Virus record (IMG/VR): IMGVR_UViG_3300020049_012431
Coordinates: 14,735 to 78,734 of that record
Direction: 5' to 3' (one strand)
Source of the DNA: a virus
Taxonomy: Duplodnaviria > Caudoviricetes
Length of the DNA stretch: 64,000 nt
Positions within the stretch are counted from its first letter, which is position 1; every line of letters begins with the position of its first letter. A model generated the notes under the pieces. It worked only from the letters and a program-made list of their open reading frames with translations, did no database searches and was not told the DNA's origin. Shown here piece by piece: positions 2,985 to 14,343 of the stretch. The position numbers and the translations under genes are program-made.

Positions 2985-3238
2985 AACGAAGTGAAGCTTT
3001 AGCGCTGATAGCAAATCAGTTAGATTTTTTAAATAACAAATTTGAAGGGGTGCGTTTTGATTTTACAAAAGAAGAACTGGCTCATGCCGATGTTATTTTG
3101 ACGACACTAGAGGCTGCCGGTATGCAGCCACCAAACATCACATTGAGAGAATTAATTCCAAGAAGTTTGTGTCAAGTAATTCTTGACGTAGACAAACATC
3201 GGTACGCATGTTGGGAGCCAGAAAATGGGAACAAATAA
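2981..3238 (+). CDS. hypothetical protein
   Basis: ATGA-coupled ORF. Confidence 0.55.
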   Translation: MKRSEALALIANQLDFLNNKFEGVRFDFTKEELAHADVILTTLEAAGMQPPNITLRELIPRSLCQVILDVDKHRYACWEPENGNK

Positions 3239-3491
3239 AAATGACTGCTGTTATCCTGTTATTATAGATGATGTCTCGCAGAAACAATTTTGTGAACCAG
3301 GTTTAACTAAACGTGAATATTTTTCAGCATTGGCAATGCAACAACTTATTGGTAAAATTTTTGGCCATGTATATGGTCATGATGTAAAAGGTAATTGTGC
3401 CGATGCGATTCAATGTGCTGAGTTGGCTGTAAAATATGCCGATGCATTAATTAATGAATTAAATAAGACAGAGGAGACAAATAATGTCTGA
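3225..3491 (+). CDS. conserved small phage protein
   Basis: GLTKREYFSALAMQ...AVKYADALINEL resembles the GMTLRDYFAAKAMQ phage family. Confidence 0.65.
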   Translation: MGTNKNDCCYPVIIDDVSQKQFCEPGLTKREYFSALAMQQLIGKIFGHVYGHDVKGNCADAIQCAELAVKYADALINELNKTEETNNV

Positions 3492-3684
3492 TAGTACAGA
3501 TGATGTTGATTGGTACGATGAGGATTATGATGATGATAGGATTGATTTAACTAAATTAATACGTAAATTAGAAAAAATTGCATATGCGGATTTGGATAAT
3601 TTTAAAAACGAACAACACATGATTAATTATATGAAAAAAATGACAAAAATAATTATGTCAGATTTAACAGGATGGGATTATTAA
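3484..3684 (+). CDS. hypothetical acidic protein
   Basis: GGAG RBS; coupled ORF. Confidence 0.55.
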   Translation: MSDSTDDVDWYDEDYDDDRIDLTKLIRKLEKIAYADLDNFKNEQHMINYMKKMTKIIMSDLTGWDY

Positions 3685-3834
3685 ATGAAAATATTTTTTA
3701 CGATTTTAGCAATTGGTTTAGTCAGTAGTTTATTACCGTTAGGATATTATAGTGTGGTGTTTGGTGCCCCTGCTGTTATTTTAAATACTATCATACTAAG
3801 TTTGGTATTTAAGAAAGAATTGTATGGAATTTAA
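3685..3834 (+). CDS. small membrane protein (49 aa)
   Basis: Translated by hand (MKIFFTILAIGLV...); two hydrophobic segments; fills the gap between neighbours. Confidence 0.5.
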   Translation: MKIFFTILAIGLVSSLLPLGYYSVVFGAPAVILNTIILSLVFKKELYGI

Positions 3835-4057
3835 AGTCGGGGATATAGTCGAGTGGTGTGGGGCAATTGGCAAAGTAATGATTGATGATAACACTCAATC
3901 CTTAAGTAGACCAATTTGCTGTCAATTTGGAGAGCCCTCTCGGTGTTTTTATTTTACAGCTGATGGTAAAGCGTTTCCTTGGCATAAAGAACCAAGCTTG
4001 AAGTTAATACATGGAGGTGCGATTGAGCAACTTAGCAGAGAACCTATTGGTTCATGA
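3824..4057 (+). CDS. hypothetical phage protein
   Basis: MEFKVGDIV...FTADGK...PSLKLI pattern seen in small phage proteins. Confidence 0.55.
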   Translation: MEFKVGDIVEWCGAIGKVMIDDNTQSLSRPICCQFGEPSRCFYFTADGKAFPWHKEPSLKLIHGGAIEQLSREPIGS

Positions 4058-5081
4058 AGAACCATTATTGAATTTTCCTGATACCCGATACATGGGAAGC
4101 AAAAGAAAACTGCTGCCATCACTACAAGGAATTTTTAAGCAATTAGATTTCCGCACAAGTCTTGATGCTTTTTCTGGAACTTCATCAGTAGCATATCTAT
4201 TGAAATCGCTCGGTAAATCCGTAGATACAAATGATTATTTGATGTTCAACTATTTCATCGCCAAAGCACTCATTGAAAACAATGGAACGATTTTGACTGA
4301 TGAGGAAGTAGAAGAAATTTGCACATTCAATGATGACAAAAATAACTTCATTGAAAAGAATTTTTCAAATATTTATTATTCAAAAAAAGACTGCAAATGG
4401 CTTGATTCTGCATGGGCAAACATTGAGTTCATAACCGACCCATACAAGAAAGCTATTGCGCTAACTGCATTGTGCAGAGCTTGTATTAAGAAAAGACCCA
4501 GAGGGATTTTTACTTATACTGGCATGAGATACGATGATGGCAGAAAAGATTTAAAAACGGAACTTGCCGACCATTTTGCAGAAGCCGTAAAAATGGTGAA
4601 TCGCTCTGTCATCACCAGTAAAAAGAAATGCATTGCCTACAACCAAGATATAATGAAGTTTAAGAAATCAAACTATGACTTGGTATATCTTGATCCACCT
4701 TACTTTTCGCTAAAATCTGATAATGAGTACTCTCGTAGGTATCACTTTCTTGAAGGCCTTGTTTCTTATTGGTCTCATGTGGAAATCAATCAAGAGACGA
4801 AGACAAAGAAATTTGACCGAATTGAATCTGATTTCACTCATCGGAGCAAAATTGTTCCTGCGTTTGAATCGCTGTTTGATAAATTTTCTGACAGCCAAAT
4901 TGTGATGTCTTACTCTTCAAACTGTTTTCCAGATGCAACTATTTTGAAAAGTCTTTTAAAGAATGCTGGCAAGGCTGTTGAGCTTATTGAGATTGATTAT
5001 GTTTATTCAGTAGGAACGCACTCACACAAGAAAGATAATGAATCTAATCGTGTTAAGGAATACGTCTTTTTAGGACTGTAG
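4011..5081 (+). CDS. DNA adenine methyltransferase (D12/Dam-like class), orphan
   Basis: RYMGSKRKLL, DAFSGTSSV (SAM binding), DLVYLDPPY (catalytic); no cognate endonuclease next to it. Confidence 0.9.
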   Translation: MEVRLSNLAENLLVHEEPLLNFPDTRYMGSKRKLLPSLQGIFKQLDFRTSLDAFSGTSSVAYLLKSLGKSVDTNDYLMFNYFIAKALIENNGTILTDEEVEEICTFNDDKNNFIEKNFSNIYYSKKDCKWLDSAWANIEFITDPYKKAIALTALCRACIKKRPRGIFTYTGMRYDDGRKDLKTELADHFAEAVKMVNRSVITSKKKCIAYNQDIMKFKKSNYDLVYLDPPYFSLKSDNEYSRRYHFLEGLVSYWSHVEINQETKTKKFDRIESDFTHRSKIVPAFESLFDKFSDSQIVMSYSSNCFPDATILKSLLKNAGKAVELIEIDYVYSVGTHSHKKDNESNRVKEYVFLGL

Positions 5082-5179
5082 CCTTTCCTTGCCACGATTC
5101 CAAATTGTGAATTTCAAATTTACTTAGGCGAGCTATTTCAAATAGCCGTCTTTTGCGAAAGTAAGAATGAGGTCGAAGA

Positions 5180-5524
5180 GTGAAAAGCGAGCAATTTGCA
5201 GAAGAAATGCTAGAAGAGATTGAAAACTTTAAAGATTTAACCAAAGAAGAACTTCCAGTAATCGCAAAAGAATATTTACAGTATAAAATAGTGAATTCTA
5301 TTCTTGGTATTATATCAGGAAGCGTCTTGTTAATCCTATCAGCTATTGCGATTATAATTTGTGTAAATAATGGTAGGCCCGTGGGTATAACAATAGGATT
5401 GGGGGTTGGGTTTACGGGATTTTCTATAACAGTTTTAAGTATAGACACACTTCTCCGCGTTATTTTACAACCTCACCGCATGGCTATTGACTCAATAATA
5501 TCATTAATAGGTAAAACAAAATGA
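5180..5524 (+). CDS. hypothetical membrane protein
   Basis: Two transmembrane segments. Confidence 0.6.
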   Translation: MKSEQFAEEMLEEIENFKDLTKEELPVIAKEYLQYKIVNSILGIISGSVLLILSAIAIIICVNNGRPVGITIGLGVGFTGFSITVLSIDTLLRVILQPHRMAIDSIISLIGKTK

Positions 5525-5528
5525 AATA

Positions 5529-5557
5529 TTGACAAAGACTAAAAATTATATTATTCT
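5529..5557 (+). promoter_or_regulatory. sigma70-type promoter
   Basis: TTGACA-17 nt-TATTCT. Confidence 0.75.
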
Positions 5558-5562
5558 GTATT

Positions 5563-5763
5563 TGTAAAAGCGATGTGGAAGCTGAACTTTCTACAGCGGG
5601 ATGTAGACGAAAGACAAATCCAGTTAGTTCTGGAGACACATTGACGGGAGGCCAAAACCCCACCTCATCGGTCAGCGCCTTAAATGTGCGCAGGAGCAAT
5701 CCAAGACAACGAAAAGGGTCGGTCGGCAACGGGGTACGCCAGAGTCGCGTCTGGCCTTTTACA
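5563..5763 (+). ncRNA. candidate structured non-coding RNA (about 200 nt)
   Basis: GC-rich island after the promoter; ends pair (TGTAAAAG/CTTTTACA); several internal hairpins. Confidence 0.65.
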
Positions 5764-5809
5764 CAACCTGAGTATGTTGTAAAACTACTCACCTTATAAT
5801 TGGAGCAAT

Positions 5810-6019
5810 GTGAAAACATCATTCTATATAAATACCGACATTGAGCAAGCTCTAGACTTAACTGGCCTAGCTTTAGACGAATTAGAATCTGTTGTTGGTA
5901 GATTTGCCGCTCACTCAAGACGGTCCGGGCTTTTGCGCGGTAAAATAGTGGAATATTCTTGCGGTAAAATTGAAATTAGAACTTGTTTTGGTAATAAATT
6001 ATTGTGGAGTAATAAATAA
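5810..6019 (+). CDS. hypothetical protein
   Basis: GGAG RBS, GTG start. Confidence 0.45.
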   Translation: MKTSFYINTDIEQALDLTGLALDELESVVGRFAAHSRRSGLLRGKIVEYSCGKIEIRTCFGNKLLWSNK

Positions 6020-6071
6020 ACTGTATTGTTTGAAAGAAATTTTGAACATTAAAAATTAATAGGAGAAGAAA

Positions 6072-6374
6072 ATGAGACAACAAAAATTTAAAATTGGCGA
6101 TAAGGTAGAAGTAAAACAAGCTGCACTCACTTGGTGCCTAAATAACCCAGACGCATATGAGGTGAGCACAACAGGACAACTAAGTGATGAACTCGCCTAT
6201 GACATACAATGTAACATTGGTCTTGCGTCTTTATTGGGAGAAAAATTTGTTGGCACCATCACTCGAATTGGAGCAGAAGATGATAAGAATGATTATTTCT
6301 ATAGAGTTAAACTTGATACGGTTTTTGGAATAGAAGAGTCATATCATGATATTAAAGATCTTTTACGGAGATAA
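6072..6374 (+). CDS. hypothetical protein
   Basis: AGGAG RBS; KFKIGDKV N-terminus. Confidence 0.6.
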   Translation: MRQQKFKIGDKVEVKQAALTWCLNNPDAYEVSTTGQLSDELAYDIQCNIGLASLLGEKFVGTITRIGAEDDKNDYFYRVKLDTVFGIEESYHDIKDLLRR

Positions 6375-6376
6375 CT

Positions 6377-6652
6377 ATGTTGCACGAATTATTACTAATG
6401 CACGCTTGTATTACTGGGATTGGTTGCAATCAAACATTTGAAGCATATAAATTCTATAATAAAGATCTGGCTGCTAGCATAAATCGTGTTGAATTTCTTG
6501 CGGACCATTATACACCAGGATTTGCTAAAACATTCATTATGCCAGGAGTGGCTCTTGCTATGGGCGGAAGTGCTATTGTTAATGTAATCGGTCCTGTTAG
6601 TTACCGTTATAGTAAAGACACACAAGAAATTCTCTTGACAAAAAGCTTTTAA
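6377..6652 (+). CDS. hypothetical protein
   Basis: GGAG RBS. Confidence 0.55.
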   Translation: MLHELLLMHACITGIGCNQTFEAYKFYNKDLAASINRVEFLADHYTPGFAKTFIMPGVALAMGGSAIVNVIGPVSYRYSKDTQEILLTKSF

Positions 6653-6663
6653 TCTGATAGGAT
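6635..6663 (+). promoter_or_regulatory. sigma70-type promoter, probably leaderless
   Basis: TTGACA-17-TAGGAT, then 6 nt to ATG 6670. Confidence 0.7.
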
Positions 6664-6669
6664 AGGCAC

Positions 6670-7782
6670 ATGAATACAAAATTAAGTCATAGCCAGGTTA
6701 ATAGATTTAGTATGTGCCCTAAATCTTATTATTTTCATTATATTGAAAAGCTACGACCTATAACAACAACAGGAGCATTATTATTTGGAAGCGCACTAGA
6801 TGCAGCTTTAAATAGTGTTTTACTCGGTAAAACCGATGCGGAGGCAGTGTTTGAACAATCCTTCACCCACCAAAAAATTAACGATGTGGAAACGTATTTG
6901 CCAACAAGTGAATTTATTATATACGCGAACAATGATATGGATATTGATTTACTCACTGAAGAAGATTTTATCTCTATTGAGAAAAAAGTTGAAGAAAATG
7001 CGATACAAAGATGTGACAATTACATATCAACTTATCAAACATTAAAAAAGAAAAAATCAGAAAAAGGATTTGACTGTCTTTCTTTAAATGAAAAACGAAC
7101 GATGAATTTATTAAACTGGCTTAGCATGAGACGTAAAGGTTTTCTAATGTTAAAGGCTTATGCAAAAAAAGTAATGCCTAGATTTAACACGGTCCATGAA
7201 GTACAACTTTCGATTAATTTAGAAAATGGATCTGGTGACAGCGTAATTGGTTTTGTGGATCTTGTTGCTGATGTTAAAGGTCATGGTACTGTTATTCTTG
7301 ATAATAAAACTGCCAGCAGAGCATATGAGTCTGATAGCGTTCGCACCAGCGCTCAGCTTAGTTTATATCTTCATGCGCTTCAAGATAAATACCCAACAAG
7401 AAAAGCGGGCTATATTGTTTTAAATAAACAACTAATAAAAAATCGAGTAAAGATTTGCAGTAAATGCGGAAATGATGGAAGTGGGGCTAGACACAAGACA
7501 TGCGATGCCATGGTAGGCGGAGAACGATGTCATGGGTCATGGAAAGAAACTATTGCGCCAGAAGTTGACGTTCAGTTCATTATCGACACAATTCCAGAAA
7601 GAGTTGAGAATTTGGTCATTGAGAATATTGACGCAACAAACCAAGCTATAAAGAGCGGAATATTTGTTAGAAATCTAAATAATTGTCAAAACTGGTTTGG
7701 TGGGAAATGCCCCCATTTTGATGTTTGTTATAAAGGTAAAGAAACAAATTTATGTAGAGTGAAGGGTTCTGGGAAAACATGA
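6670..7782 (+). CDS. PD-(D/E)XK exonuclease (RecB/Cas4-like)
   Basis: LSHSQVNRFSMCPKSY, GFVDLV..VILDNKT, QLSLY, C-terminal Cys cluster. Confidence 0.85.
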   Translation: MNTKLSHSQVNRFSMCPKSYYFHYIEKLRPITTTGALLFGSALDAALNSVLLGKTDAEAVFEQSFTHQKINDVETYLPTSEFIIYANNDMDIDLLTEEDFISIEKKVEENAIQRCDNYISTYQTLKKKKSEKGFDCLSLNEKRTMNLLNWLSMRRKGFLMLKAYAKKVMPRFNTVHEVQLSINLENGSGDSVIGFVDLVADVKGHGTVILDNKTASRAYESDSVRTSAQLSLYLHALQDKYPTRKAGYIVLNKQLIKNRVKICSKCGNDGSGARHKTCDAMVGGERCHGSWKETIAPEVDVQFIIDTIPERVENLVIENIDATNQAIKSGIFVRNLNNCQNWFGGKCPHFDVCYKGKETNLCRVKGSGKT

Positions 7783-7973
7783 AAAAAGAATTACGTGTAA
7801 GCTTTTATTGGGACTTTGTTGATGTAGACGAATCTGCTGAATTTATCGAAGTGCAGTTTCCAAATTGGTTCTATGATATGAGAAACAGACGCATAGATCC
7901 TGATGTAAAAGAAAAATTGAAAACAGGAAAATATAAAGTACTATTGGTATCGGAGGATGAAAGTGGGAAGTAA
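7779..7973 (+). CDS. hypothetical protein
   Basis: ATGA-coupled ORF. Confidence 0.5.
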   Translation: MKKELRVSFYWDFVDVDESAEFIEVQFPNWFYDMRNRRIDPDVKEKLKTGKYKVLLVSEDESGK

Positions 7974-8370
7974 GTTTTTTGGATTGAAGAATAAGGGTAA
8001 AAAACGCAGCGCAACAATAGAAGCACCAAATACTGATGCGTTCTCTGAGCAAGAGCTGACATCTATGTTAGATGAGTTGAATGCTCCATTAGTGGAAGAA
8101 ACAGTCGTAGATAAACCGGCACCTCCAGTATTAGAGAAGCAAGAAGTAGTCCATGTCACTAAGCACAATGAAGAAAACTTTATAGCTTATGGTATTTGTT
8201 ACAACGAAGAAAAAAAGAAATACATGCTTTTTTCTATTGACTATAATCCAAAAACGGGATATAGTGAAGTTATTGGTACAGAGGAATACGCTGATAGCGC
8301 ACCAACTGCACTAAATAAATTAAATCGTATTATGAGTTTAAAACTACTTAAAAAAGAGGAGAGATATTAA
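7957..8370 (+). CDS. hypothetical protein
   Basis: 137-aa ORF in the recombination operon. Confidence 0.55.
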   Translation: MKVGSKFFGLKNKGKKRSATIEAPNTDAFSEQELTSMLDELNAPLVEETVVDKPAPPVLEKQEVVHVTKHNEENFIAYGICYNEEKKKYMLFSIDYNPKTGYSEVIGTEEYADSAPTALNKLNRIMSLKLLKKEERY

Positions 8371-8371
8371 A

Positions 8372-8902
8372 ATGATTAAATCAGAGAGTATTGCTAAAAT
8401 CGCTTTAGCACTTTTAGAAGCACAAAAGAATATGGGTAATGCAACTAAAGAATCTAAGAACCCATTCTTTAAATCAACTTACGCAGATTTAAACTCAGTT
8501 CGTGAAGCGGTAACTCCGGCACTAAATGCAGCTGGTATTACTGTAATGCAACCAACAATGCTTGCTGCTGATGGTACTGCTGTTGTTGAAACTACTTTGT
8601 TACATTCTTCGGGTGAATTTCTTGTATCACAATTCCCTATTGTATCATCAAAACAGAATGATCCTCAAGCATTTGGTAGTGCTGTGAGCTATGCTCGTCG
8701 TTATGGATTACAGAGCTTTCTTTCGGTTGGTGCCGTCGATGACGATGGCGAAGCTGATATGGGCAGAAAAACATTTACCACTAAGCCGGTAGCATTAGCT
8801 GAGTCTTTGTCTCAACCATTAACAGTAGGACCGGCATTAACTGCGGCAAAAAAGATTAGTTTTTCTAAAAACGCATTAAAACAAACAGAGGATGATATTT
8901 AA
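8372..8902 (+). CDS. erf: ERF-family single-strand annealing protein
   Basis: KNPFFKSTYADL, DPQAFGSAVSYARRYGL, DDDG motifs. Confidence 0.9.
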   Translation: MIKSESIAKIALALLEAQKNMGNATKESKNPFFKSTYADLNSVREAVTPALNAAGITVMQPTMLAADGTAVVETTLLHSSGEFLVSQFPIVSSKQNDPQAFGSAVSYARRYGLQSFLSVGAVDDDGEADMGRKTFTTKPVALAESLSQPLTVGPALTAAKKISFSKNALKQTEDDI

Positions 8903-9291
8903 TGAGCACAGAAGATACAACAACACTTGGTCAAGGACTTGAAGAAGCGGTACAAGCATCAGAAGAACCGGTTGCTGATGAGGTGGCTATTGCCGCAGGA
9001 TATTATGCTCAATTAGCTAAGACAATTCGTGCCTATAGTCGAAATATGGGGGGCAAAGGTCTTGCTCGTGTTATTAGTGCTTATGCTGAATTTCCTTTTG
9101 CTGAAAAGTATCCAACATTCCGAAGTCAAACAGAACAACAATTATTTACTTTTTTGTTGACAATTCAAAGCACAAAGGCTACTATAAGTAACGCTATTCA
9201 ATCGGAACACGCAAATATTGAAGAAGCCGCAGTAAATAATATGGTTAGTGAAATTCAAGAAAAACAAAAAGGAGAAACACATGGCAGCTAA
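8902..9291 (+). CDS. hypothetical protein
   Basis: TAATG-coupled ORF. Confidence 0.6.
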   Translation: MSTEDTTTLGQGLEEAVQASEEPVADEVAIAAGYYAQLAKTIRAYSRNMGGKGLARVISAYAEFPFAEKYPTFRSQTEQQLFTFLLTIQSTKATISNAIQSEHANIEEAAVNNMVSEIQEKQKGETHGS

Positions 9292-11875: not shown

Positions 11876-14343
11876 TGGAACAGTTTGTTGTAGACACAAA
11901 AGAAGCGTTTCAGGATGTACTGTCTTGCCTACAAGACGGTACAGAACTAAAACATGTATCAGAAAATGTATACAAAATGAGTGGCGCAACATTAGAATTT
12001 AATAAGGAATACGAAGACCAGCTTCAGCTTCATGATATCATTTATGGTATAAATAAAGAATCTAATATTGTTAATATCTCAATTAAAAATGATCTTGTTT
12101 ATATTTTTAAAGAAACCGTCGCTGGTGTCCACTATAAGGTGTTACCATACAAACACTGGGTATTAGCTAAATCAAAATTAAATGAATCGTTTAAACCTCT
12201 ATTCGGCAAACAATCGTATTCCTGGTATAAAGAATATAGCTATGAGCAATTTGAAATAAATATACAACCTAAAATGTATAAGATGGGATTGTATACAATA
12301 CACAATCCTGCTGAAAATTTTATGACACGTCAGGGATTTACATACTTCAAAGATACAAAAAGTATCGATGTGTCGGTTGTTTCTTTTGATATAGAGACAA
12401 CAGGGTTAGATCCTAAAGCCAAGGATGCTCAGGTATTATTAATAACGAATACATATAGAAAAGGCACAACGCAATTAAGCAAGACCTTTTCTGTTGCTGA
12501 TTATAAAAATGATGGCGATATGATACTAGACTGGTGCTCTTGGGTTGTTGAGATGGACCCGAGTGTCATGCTTGGTCATAATATTGTTATGTTTGATATT
12601 CCTTATATCAAAGGACGAATTAATTCTTATAAAAAAGAACTACCAATTGGTCGTATGCAGGAAGAATTAGTCATTGAAGATAAACCAAGAGAATTACGAA
12701 AAGATGGTAGCCAGTCGTATACATACCATAGAGTAAACTGTTTCGGCAGAGAAGTAGTTGATACTTTCTTTTTGGCAATTAAAGCCGATACAGCACGCAA
12801 ATATGAATCATATGGTTTGAAAAGTATCATTAAACAAGAAGGTTTAGAGGAAGCAGATAGACAACAATACGATGCTGCGTCTATTGGTAAAAACTGGCAT
12901 ATTCCAGAAGAGCGAGCAAAAATTATTGCCTATGCGGAGGCAGACAGCCGCGACCCAATTAAATTGTATGATCTAATGATAGCACCATTCTTCTACCTAA
13001 CACCATATATACCAAAACCATTTCAGATAATGATGGAAAGCGCAACAGGAAGTCAGATTAATTCCCTCATGGTGAGAAGCTACTTACAAAAGAATATGTC
13101 TGTAGCTGAGGGCAGCCCTTCGGTAGAATTCGAGGGTGCGATTAGCTTCGGCAATACTGGTATTTATAAAAATGTGTATAAAGTTGACGTGGCATCACTG
13201 TATCCAAGTATTATGCGTCATTACAAAATATATCCAGAAAAAAAGGATTTTAATTTAAATTTCGCGAAAATGTTAGAATATTTTACAGTAGAGAGATTAA
13301 AGAATAAAGTATTAGCTAAAGACACCGGTGATAGGTATTATGATGATTTACAAAACTCACAAAAAAATCTGGTGAATTCCTGCTACGGTTTTTTAGGGGC
13401 CAAGGGTCTCAATTATAATTTTCCTAGTGGTGCTGCCGCTGTTACTAAGTACGGTAGAGAAGTAGTCACAAAAGCTGTTGAATGGGCAACTGGTCACACA
13501 TTAGAGCACAAGGTAAAACATATTCGAAATGAAGGCAAAGAAAATGAAGAGATAGAAAGAGAATGGGTTATGGGTAAAAAAATTGGAGAAGGAAAAGGAT
13601 ACACTATATCAAATTGTGATACAGATAGTATTTCTTTTACTTGCGGTAAAGACCTAACCCTAGAAGATAGAAAAAATATTATAGTGGATATAAACTCGCA
13701 CTTTCCGGAAATGATTAGATTCGAGGATGACGGGTACTATTCTGTTGTTTGTATTTTAAAAGCTAAGAATTATATTTTATTTGATGGAAAGAAAATTAAA
13801 CTTAAAGGCAGTTCAATTAGAGACCAGAAAAAAGAGCCGGGATTGAAAGAGATGATGGACAAAATGATCAATTGTATCATATTTGATAATCCTCAAAACC
13901 TGATTAATATATACCACGATTATATTAGAGAGACAATGAATGTTCAAGATATTAGACGCTGGTGCGCAAAAAAGACAATTACCAAAGCGATTCTTAATTG
14001 TGCACATGACCCTGAAGCGCGAATGAATGAAGTAAAGGTATATGATGCTGTAAAGGATATTCCTGGGCTGCAAGAGGGCGATAAGGTATACCTGTACCCA
14101 ACAATACTTGGTACTGAGATAATTCCTGGTGGTGTATCGTTAAAAACCGGAAAACCATTAAAAGATAAGAGTAAACTAGTCACAGGACTTAAATTAGTTG
14201 AAAAATGGGTTGGTGATGAGGATAAAGATAAGTTAATTCAACGAGTTGTAGATACTGTAGATATTTTTGCTAATGTTATTGACATAAATCAATTTGTAGA
14301 CTACACTCTAAATAAGAATAAAAATCTCTTGACTTCTTTATAA
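11875..14343 (+). CDS. DNA polymerase, family B
   Basis: Exonuclease motifs SFDIETTG and GHNIVMFD; polymerase motifs DVASLYPSI, KNLVNSCYG, NCDTDS. Confidence 0.95.
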   Translation: MEQFVVDTKEAFQDVLSCLQDGTELKHVSENVYKMSGATLEFNKEYEDQLQLHDIIYGINKESNIVNISIKNDLVYIFKETVAGVHYKVLPYKHWVLAKSKLNESFKPLFGKQSYSWYKEYSYEQFEINIQPKMYKMGLYTIHNPAENFMTRQGFTYFKDTKSIDVSVVSFDIETTGLDPKAKDAQVLLITNTYRKGTTQLSKTFSVADYKNDGDMILDWCSWVVEMDPSVMLGHNIVMFDIPYIKGRINSYKKELPIGRMQEELVIEDKPRELRKDGSQSYTYHRVNCFGREVVDTFFLAIKADTARKYESYGLKSIIKQEGLEEADRQQYDAASIGKNWHIPEERAKIIAYAEADSRDPIKLYDLMIAPFFYLTPYIPKPFQIMMESATGSQINSLMVRSYLQKNMSVAEGSPSVEFEGAISFGNTGIYKNVYKVDVASLYPSIMRHYKIYPEKKDFNLNFAKMLEYFTVERLKNKVLAKDTGDRYYDDLQNSQKNLVNSCYGFLGAKGLNYNFPSGAAAVTKYGREVVTKAVEWATGHTLEHKVKHIRNEGKENEEIEREWVMGKKIGEGKGYTISNCDTDSISFTCGKDLTLEDRKNIIVDINSHFPEMIRFEDDGYYSVVCILKAKNYILFDGKKIKLKGSSIRDQKKEPGLKEMMDKMINCIIFDNPQNLINIYHDYIRETMNVQDIRRWCAKKTITKAILNCAHDPEARMNEVKVYDAVKDIPGLQEGDKVYLYPTILGTEIIPGGVSLKTGKPLKDKSKLVTGLKLVEKWVGDEDKDKLIQRVVDTVDIFANVIDINQFVDYTLNKNKNLLTSL

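Follow-up and report, generated by a model that had tools for sequence, protein, structure and literature searches.

What kind of element is the GC-rich island that follows a promoter in the AT-rich DNA of a metagenomic phage? The island lies in a stretch of 64,000 nucleotides (nt), hereafter the window, which corresponds to bases 14735–78734 of a 78.7-kb metagenomic phage record in IMG/VR (IMGVR_UViG_3300020049_012431; 37% GC, 94% complete). A first-pass annotation, made from the letters of the window alone, had proposed that positions 5529–5763 hold a non-coding RNA of about 200 nt with its own promoter, paired ends and several stems; it had recognized no family and had suggested a decoy, an antitoxin, a protein sponge or a ribozyme as candidate roles. 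Covariation across seven homologues supports this proposal, and we are highly confident that the element represents a real family of structured RNAs that is not in Rfam 15.

All window features described here are on the plus strand. The predicted RNA, measured from the 5′ strand to the 3′ strand of its closing helix (P1), is 201 nt long (5563–5763). It is preceded by a sigma-70-type promoter, TTGACA-17-TATTCT (5529–5557), which scored 10/12 and whose −10 element lies 5 nt from P1. GC content is 51–52% at 5575–5799 versus 28–40% on either side, in agreement with the annotated island, and the two ends of the RNA, TGTAAAAG (5563–5570) and CTTTTACA (5756–5763), are exact complements. By itself the window sequence is weak evidence for a structured RNA; it is the comparison of homologues that decides the matter. 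The predicted fold has a minimum free energy of −61 kcal/mol (z = −1.3), and 19 of 200 shuffled sequences are equally stable. The reverse strand is nearly as stable in folding, and the 8-bp end helix is non-significant by a free search of the flanks, where such helices are frequent by chance.

Homologues were sought through a neighboring gene. A PD-(D/E)XK exonuclease that flanks the RNA in the window has hundreds of relatives on contigs of ~80 kb, and 51 viral loci around such relatives were retrieved and searched for the RNA. A single homologue (locus L004; 81% identity over the core) was found by nhmmer, and a covariance model together with block-based DNA patterns added L063, L067, L151, L146, L143 and L147. 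The set comprises the window and these seven, which come from two related phages of the ~80-kb type, two phages of 167–176 kb and three other contigs. L063 is on the same contig as L065 and L144 (a related phage), L067 on the same contig as L145 (the 167-kb phage), and L151 is in the 176-kb phage. A covariance model of all eight sequences (R2) scores every member at 67–88 bits and nothing else above 11 bits. The RNA is 106–258 nt long among the homologues and single-copy in its genomes; five of 34 phage records searched whole carry it. L147 is a 1.8-kb contig (VFLE01000213.1) binned with a metagenome-assembled genome of Candidatus Shapirobacteria. Its RNA is at 303–428 on the minus strand, and a transfer RNA (tRNA) gene, tRNA-Ile(AAU) (83–155), lies ~150 nt downstream. 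The gene content of this contig is phage-like and the binning with Shapirobacteria may be wrong.

A BLAST search of GenBank phages with the window, L151 and L147 elements gave no homologue, only chance 24-mers and tRNA T-arms, and a protein scan of close relatives gave no RNA locus. An exact pattern for the first conserved block (block 1, below) matched only the L147 contig among 185,579 prokaryote genomes. The DNA patterns CAACGAAANNGGTCGGTCG, GGTCGGTCGNNAACGGNG and TGACGGGANNCC...AACGG produced mostly chance matches within coding genes (antirepressor and others). Pattern loci L053–L061, L066, L068–L142 and L148–L165, L151 excepted, were rejected either by reading or by the covariance model; also rejected were two weak model hits without block 1, L064 (E 0.24) and L009 (11 bits). 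A DNA polymerase search meant to relate the large phages to the window phage is uninformative, as it found no match even in known relatives.

Searches for a known identity were likewise negative. Across the whole window Rfam 15 has no match at gathering thresholds, and at E ≤ 10 there are chance-level rows only (MIR812, STnc280, SAM-SAH and RF_site3), all far under their thresholds; a full-text literature search for the core sequences also gave no match. ARAGORN called no tRNA or transfer-messenger RNA (tmRNA) at the element in the window or at seven homologue loci (L151 left out). Readings of the element as tmRNA-like, as a permuted tRNA or as an anti-Shine-Dalgarno mimic were dropped on the basis of this result and of the internal position of the motifs: in a tRNA-like test CUCCACCU is internal, not 3′-terminal. 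Complementarity of the core blocks to Escherichia coli 16S, 23S and 5S ribosomal RNA and two tRNAs is no better than that of shuffled blocks.

What the eight sequences have in common is a universal core of ~95 nt, which consists of a near-invariant strand, UGACGGGARRCCAARAYYCCACCU, followed by 32–62 nt of variable hairpins and then GGUMGGYCGRYAACGGRR. In the window the first of these strands is block 1, UGACGGGAGGCCAAAACCCCACCU (5642–5665; 18 of 24 positions invariant in 8/8 homologues), and the second is block 2, GGUCGGUCGGCAACGGGG (5717–5734). An alignment of the eight cores (A4) shows that CYCC of block 1 (5658–5661) and GGRG of block 2 (5731–5734) form a helix, P3, which is 100% paired and has two compensated pairs: six members have CUCC/GGAG, whereas the window has CCCC/GGGG and L151 has UCCC/GGGA. 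Next to P3, ACC of block 1 (5662–5664) is complementary to the invariant GGU at the start of block 2 (5717–5719) and may form P4 with it, such that CYCCACC stands opposite GGU...GGRG with an 11-nt bulge between. GGYC within this bulge (5721–5724) matches GRCC of block 1 (5650–5653). This helix, X, is 97% paired in A4; its G-U pair is replaced by A-U in two members (L004 and L147) and by G-C in L143, and L004 has one mismatch. Judged from these base changes, the pseudoknot that helix X would form with P3 is probable. About 30 core nucleotides are both invariant and unpaired. In L143, ~15 nt past the core on the minus strand, there is a CCCGUCA complementary to the invariant UGACGGG of block 1, and ~170 nt of further structured region with two terminator-like hairpins precedes the next gene.

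Around the core the architecture varies. P1 in the window is formed by UGUAAAAG (5563–5570) and CUUUUACA (5756–5763), the latter with a weak U tract; the helix is 100% paired among the homologues, with five of its eight pairs compensated, and other versions of it include GUGAGUG, GCUAGUA, UGUGACAG, CAAUAUUUC and GUGUCCCUAACGG. The window, L063 and L146 form a subgroup in which a 5′ arm (P2, the GAAGCU/URGAGA loop strands, P2a and V1), a 3′ hairpin and P1 occupy homologous positions; the P1 sequences of these three are nonetheless entirely different. P2 pairs AUGUG (5573–5577) with CACAU (5637–5641) and has two compensated pairs (GCGUG/CACGC in L063). Inside it, GAAGCU (5578–5583) faces UGGAGA (5631–5636), an internal loop kept in the window, L063, L146 and L004; a kink-turn reading of this loop was rejected on account of unsuited geometry. 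P2a, read from the sequences, pairs GAAC (5584–5587) with GUUC (5627–5630) and closes the variable domain V1 (5584–5630); its counterpart in L063 and L146 is GUGG/CCAC, which amounts to three compensated pairs. V1 itself contains the hairpin CUACA-GCGGGA-UGUAG (5591–5606), a window-specific helix.

The variable segment between the blocks, V2 (5675–5702), comprises two hairpins in the window. The first (GCGC/GCGC, 5675–5678 and 5688–5691) has G-C, A-U or U-A as its third pair. The second, GGA-GCAA-UCC (5693–5702), appears also as GGC/GCU or AGA/UCU, always with a GNRA loop. Across the members the V2 hairpins are unrelated, with GNRA or UUCG caps or, in L147 only, a perfect T-arm, CUGGGUUCGAUUCCCAG. 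The 3′ hairpin of the window, GCCAGA-GUCGCG-UCUGGC (5738–5755), has only CUUUUACA after it; L063 has the identical hairpin and L146 one with a 5-bp stem, while in L004, where the 5′ arm is missing, a domain of ~115 nt closed by GGCUGG/CCAGCC takes its place. Natural minimal forms exist in L151 (106 nt, 13-bp P1, fold z = −3.0) and L147 (126 nt, 9-bp P1), in both of which P1 abuts the core directly. Just 3′ of the RNA in the window, UGUAAAA recurs at 5781–5787 in the loop of a hairpin, UGAGUA...UACUCA, and could rival the 5′ end for the 3′ strand of P1; it has no counterpart among the homologues.

The fold comprising P1, P2, P3 and both small hairpins is supported by compensatory changes. In a MAFFT alignment fitted to no structure (A7), from which the figures for P1 and P2 above derive, 98% of cells pair, as compared to 29–38% with slid partners; ten pairs are compensated, and none of 500 shuffles matches the observed covariation. 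Most of the pairings drawn in the first-pass annotation are part of this fold: the paired ends, ATGTG/CACAT, GCGC/GCGC, GGA-GCAA-TCC with its GNRA loop, and GCCAGA/TCTGGC. Two are not. The proposed TGAC..GAGG/CCTC..GTCA stem is 84% paired across the homologues with no compensation, and its bases lie in invariant strands that pair elsewhere. The proposed CCAG/CTGG stem competes with P2a, which is the one that covaries.

Conservation of the core could in principle derive from a small protein, the region being coding or doubly coding. Measured from the start of block 1, block 2 lies 79, 76, 79, 58, 88, 61, 61 and 64 nt away in the eight members, a spacing of 1 mod 3 in 8/8 (roughly 0.001–0.004 by chance); one plus frame reads LTGGQDSTLS...RSVDNGA across homologues, and one minus frame crosses the core without a stop in five of eight. 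Yet none of the frames, forward or reverse, runs uninterrupted across the core in all eight members: each has stops in several homologues, and since these include both TAA and TAG a single reassigned stop cannot rescue a frame. In the two best frames, what little variation the blocks show falls on the first or second base of a codon, third positions being invariant; the length of V1 breaks frame; and the window and L063 share ~75% of their nucleotides and only ~45–55% of their amino acids. A search of 5.8 billion proteins gave no homologue of either the 74-amino-acid plus-strand open reading frame (ORF), which the annotation had set aside as incidental, or a 144-amino-acid minus-strand ORF, which lies across two real genes of the plus strand. 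For the minus-frame translation of L063, an exhaustive HMMER search of 1.84 billion representatives returned a sole match, P0121, a 774-amino-acid tandem-repeat artifact. A coding explanation is, on these grounds, hardly tenable.

The presence of the RNA in 5/34 records, along with mosaic contigs, indicates that it is an accessory cassette in a variable early region. On a contig with a 99%-identical exonuclease, a block corresponding to ~3238–6072 is apparently absent, judged from gene lengths; in the window this block holds small ORFs, a DNA methyltransferase, a 114-amino-acid membrane ORF, the RNA and a 69-amino-acid ORF. In a freshwater run (X4) two contigs match 5520–5641 and 5741–5846, with a different, AT-rich sequence in place of the core (5642–5740); going by this arrangement, the same RNA scaffold may carry another insert there. 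A public run from activated sludge contains a unitig that almost exactly matches 5550–5766. None of the runs containing the RNA is listed as an RNA sample with certainty. A contig from a wastewater run (X2, marked 'RNA?') spanning 5446–5707 was considered as a transcript and discarded: it starts upstream of the promoter and is uninformative on transcription. The methyltransferase gene that the RNA adjoins (4011–5081) has, at 4480–4757, 79.6% DNA identity to the adenine methylase of Erysipelothrix phage phi1605, the sole GenBank phage match for window positions 3000–9000.

Alternatively, the element might act as DNA, forming hairpins when single-stranded and serving, for example, as an origin, as a site of single-strand initiation or as a hotspot of recombination. 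Its situation in a replication or early module, and the matching flanks and replaced core of run X4, fit that idea. The details of the structure do not: G-U pairs occur on the plus strand only, hairpins are capped by GNRA, UUCG and T-loops, the promoter sits exactly at P1, and the orientation is always that of the genes. We find a DNA-level function scarcely credible.

The 69-amino-acid ORF downstream (5810–6019; GGAG ribosome-binding site, GTG start) begins 46 nt after the RNA. Proteins of its family (69–74 amino acids) are encoded by three of the five RNA carriers and by none of the 29 non-carriers (hypergeometric ~0.002, kinship ignored). The three are the window's phage (G000), where the gene is adjacent to the RNA; G031, where 3.2 kb separate the two; and the 167-kb phage, G032, where protein and RNA are on the same strand ~150 kb apart linearly, or ~17 kb across the record ends if the record is circularly permuted. 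No end overlap, which would show circular permutation, was found in G032. Outside the window, the coordinates of family members are L004 4772–4996 and G032:C1:165642–165857. AlphaFold2 models the window's protein with a predicted local distance difference test score (pLDDT) of 92. It belongs to no Pfam or PHROG family, and no fold stood out when it was compared by means of a protein atlas, Foldseek against the PDB, and VIA-align wide (the best Z was 4.2, with Cro- and Ugi-like rows at 3.5–3.9 only). The protein is the only candidate partner of the RNA so far.

One form such a partnership could take is that of a type III toxin–antitoxin pair, with the RNA as antitoxin or regulator of the adjacent protein. 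The order in the window – promoter, RNA, hairpin with UUUU, ribosome-binding site, 69-amino-acid ORF – is that of such a pair, and the protein family is confined to RNA carriers. The RNA lacks tandem repeats, however, the protein is unlike ToxN, AbiEii and CptN, the distance between the two genes ranges from adjacency to that in G031 and G032, and at five of the eight RNA loci a protein of this kind is missing from the vicinity. Type III antitoxin RNAs are tandem direct repeats of a 34–45-nt unit upstream of an endoribonuclease toxin gene; here the core is single-copy with no visible repeats and the protein has no toxin family match. We therefore hold this pairing to be highly improbable.

How the RNA is transcribed bears on whether it acts on its own or as the leader of a message. 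The promoter of the first-pass annotation is borne out by its spacing from P1, which recurs in three homologues: the gap is 6 nt in L004 (TTGACT-17-TATTCT) and in L146 (TTGACT-17-GATGAT). Since the promoter ends 5–6 nt before P1 in the window, L004 and L146, the predicted start is the first paired base. L063 has no promoter of its own. The RNA is co-oriented with flanking genes in the six homologue loci for which ORFs were listed, and in the window, L004 and L151. Its neighbors are unrelated from locus to locus – a membrane protein and the 69-amino-acid ORF; a UvsX-like gene and a 311-amino-acid ORF; a ClpP region and a helicase; an endonuclease VII-like gene; a thymidylate-kinase-like gene and tRNA-Ile – and no conserved neighboring gene family exists among the loci. 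Terminators separate the RNA from the next gene in L143, and the next gene downstream in L147 is the tRNA, with no ORF. In L067 a 4-bp GC hairpin and a U7 tract come straight after the core, followed by the ribosome-binding site and ATG of the helicase gene; a terminator scan called neither this hairpin nor the 3′ hairpin of the window. Elsewhere in the window, further plus-strand sites resembling the promoter (TTGAC(A/T)-17-TAYWYT) occur at 14279, 17388 and 60126; in all, six such sites are observed versus 2.2 expected, which suggests, as a prediction from motif counts, a set of host-type early or middle promoters.

Our preferred reading, held tentatively and with just under even confidence, is that the element is a stand-alone stable RNA, the invariant core of which would offer a docking site to a protein or small-molecule partner that is itself conserved. 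It is favored because P1 seals the ends exactly at the predicted start, because the RNA can precede a tRNA or lie behind terminators, because there is no common downstream gene, and because the RNA is a movable accessory cassette with a co-occurring small protein. Several observations weigh against it. The family is known from eight sequences only, and helix X and P4 are backed by little or no covariation. The RNA model does not explain the 1-mod-3 spacing of the blocks. The small protein is adjacent to the RNA in the window only, and one complete carrier (G033) is without it. Many invariant unpaired nucleotides are commoner in riboswitch aptamers and ribozymes than in protein-binding small RNAs. 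Finally, in the window, L063, L146 and L151 an ORF that has a ribosome-binding site lies 15–50 nt past the RNA with no intervening promoter, which means that the RNA could be a mere 5′ leader, and the layout of L067 is riboswitch-like.

The main rival is a cis-acting leader that would control read-through into downstream early genes, its core being either a riboswitch aptamer or, like the put RNAs of HK022, a modifier of RNA polymerase. The RNA stands where a leader would, immediately behind an early promoter and immediately ahead of ORFs on its own strand; the hairpin, U7 tract, ribosome-binding site and ATG of L067, the downstream terminators of L143, and the UUUU after the 3′ hairpin of the window also fit a leader. 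The ~30 invariant unpaired nucleotides and the pseudoknot are aptamer-like, and alternative pairings that might operate a switch are available in the window (UGUAAAA at 5781–5787 versus the 3′ strand of P1) and in L143 (CCCGUCA versus UGACGGG). But the genes downstream (the 69-amino-acid ORF, a 151-amino-acid ORF, helicase, endonuclease VII-like, a 311-amino-acid ORF and tRNA) are unrelated and point to no common regulated function; in L147 what follows is a tRNA, and in L143 two terminators come ahead of the next gene. There is no conservation in the putative expression platforms, the hairpins of the window and L067 go uncalled as terminators, and a P1 whose first base is that of the predicted start is better suited to protecting the RNA end than to a switch. 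We regard the leader as a doubtful, if real, possibility.

A further alternative is catalysis: the RNA would be a new ribozyme that cleaves or processes itself, with the invariant core as its catalytic center. The core is small, highly conserved and probably pseudoknotted, and the stems around it vary freely; this would suit a ribozyme, as would occurrence in phages, sometimes within polycistronic units that lack a promoter of their own (L063); twister, pistol and hatchet ribozymes show an occurrence pattern of that sort. Set against this, no Rfam ribozyme matches even at E ≤ 10, and the members display neither a cleavage-site signature nor circular permutation. A ribozyme is improbable. It is conceivable, though we have limited faith in the idea, that the core serves as the pocket for a ligand, or as the catalytic center, in a riboswitch or ribozyme class that is new and particular to phages, and that it has been horizontally shared among unrelated phages of ~80 kb and 167–176 kb and grafted into different scaffolds, maybe working with the 69-amino-acid protein of new fold.

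Host RNA polymerase would start at the early promoter TTGACA-17-TATTCT, and the first bases made would be the 5′ strand of P1. As covariation shows, the RNA folds into a junction closed by P1, bearing the peripheral arm (P2, P2a and V1), the 3′ hairpin and the universal core. Within the core, CYCCACC against GGU...GGRG (P3 and P4) clamps the two strands, with the V2 hairpins serving as spacer, and the 11-nt bulge probably pairs back to GRCC of the first strand as the helix X pseudoknot. On the stand-alone reading, the ~30 invariant unpaired nucleotides would present a specific surface to the partner, and the RNA may act early in infection as an accessory factor in host takeover or counter-defence. 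Variable early-gene islands are where functions of both kinds tend to cluster.

The element is of interest because ~40 near-invariant nucleotides have been kept between phages that share almost no genes. An invariant core combined with a probable pseudoknot and swappable stems usually marks ligand sensing, catalysis or tight protein binding. To our knowledge, structured phage RNAs with complex folds are rare, and nearly all are without a known function. At 106 and 126 nt, the minimal natural forms could readily be probed in vitro, screened with ligands and taken to structure determination, and should the RNA prove ordinary it would still be a clean new family for Rfam.

Among known systems, the riboswitch aptamers built from P1 and an H-type pseudoknot, such as the SAM-II and preQ1-II classes, share several features with the family: a closing P1 whose sequence is unconstrained, a pair of short near-invariant strands, a pseudoknot, A-rich loops, and a variable insert that accepts any stable hairpin. 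Terminators after two members add to the likeness. Conserved, covarying, aptamer-like stems are present, whereas a coherent set of downstream genes is not; in addition, there is no Rfam riboswitch match, no conserved expression platform, and one member precedes a tRNA.

The Y RNAs (YrlA, bound by Ro60/Rsr) are similar in having their 5′ and 3′ ends paired in a stem, in being modular and, with respect to L147, in carrying a T-arm. GGUCGA/UUGAC here also resembles the Ro-binding helix, GGUCCGA/UUGAC. The strand order is reversed, however, covariation favors GRCC x GGYC, and there is no match to a Y RNA in Rfam. The Y RNA reading was rejected given that the look-alike helix (UGAC/GUCG) is broken in L143, where GRCC x GGYC improves; a search of G000 for a TROVE (Ro60/Rsr) protein found no match, while control genomes matched.

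With the pRNA of phi29 the element shares a phage origin, a length of ~170–200 nt, multiple stems, paired ends and an early promoter. It differs in having no Rfam pRNA match and in being carried by phages of 80–176 kb that are not phi29-like; moreover, its sporadic presence among close relatives means that it cannot be an essential packaging component. The type III antitoxin RNAs (ToxI) are, like the present RNA, pseudoknotted, associated with phages or defence, and placed ahead of a protein gene, from which a terminator-like hairpin separates them; they differ by their tandem repeats, their ToxN-like partner and their fixed linkage to a protein.

The last comparison is with a catalogue of 8495 candidate structured RNAs (csRNAs, named 'DNAVirus_X') derived from IMG/VR (Fremin, Bhatt and Kyrpides 2023; PMC10690425), the motifs of which have a mean length of 67 nt, none exceeding 151 nt. 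Like the family described here, the csRNAs are covarying intergenic motifs of IMG/VR phage contigs with function unassigned, and the catalogue could include a piece of the present motif.

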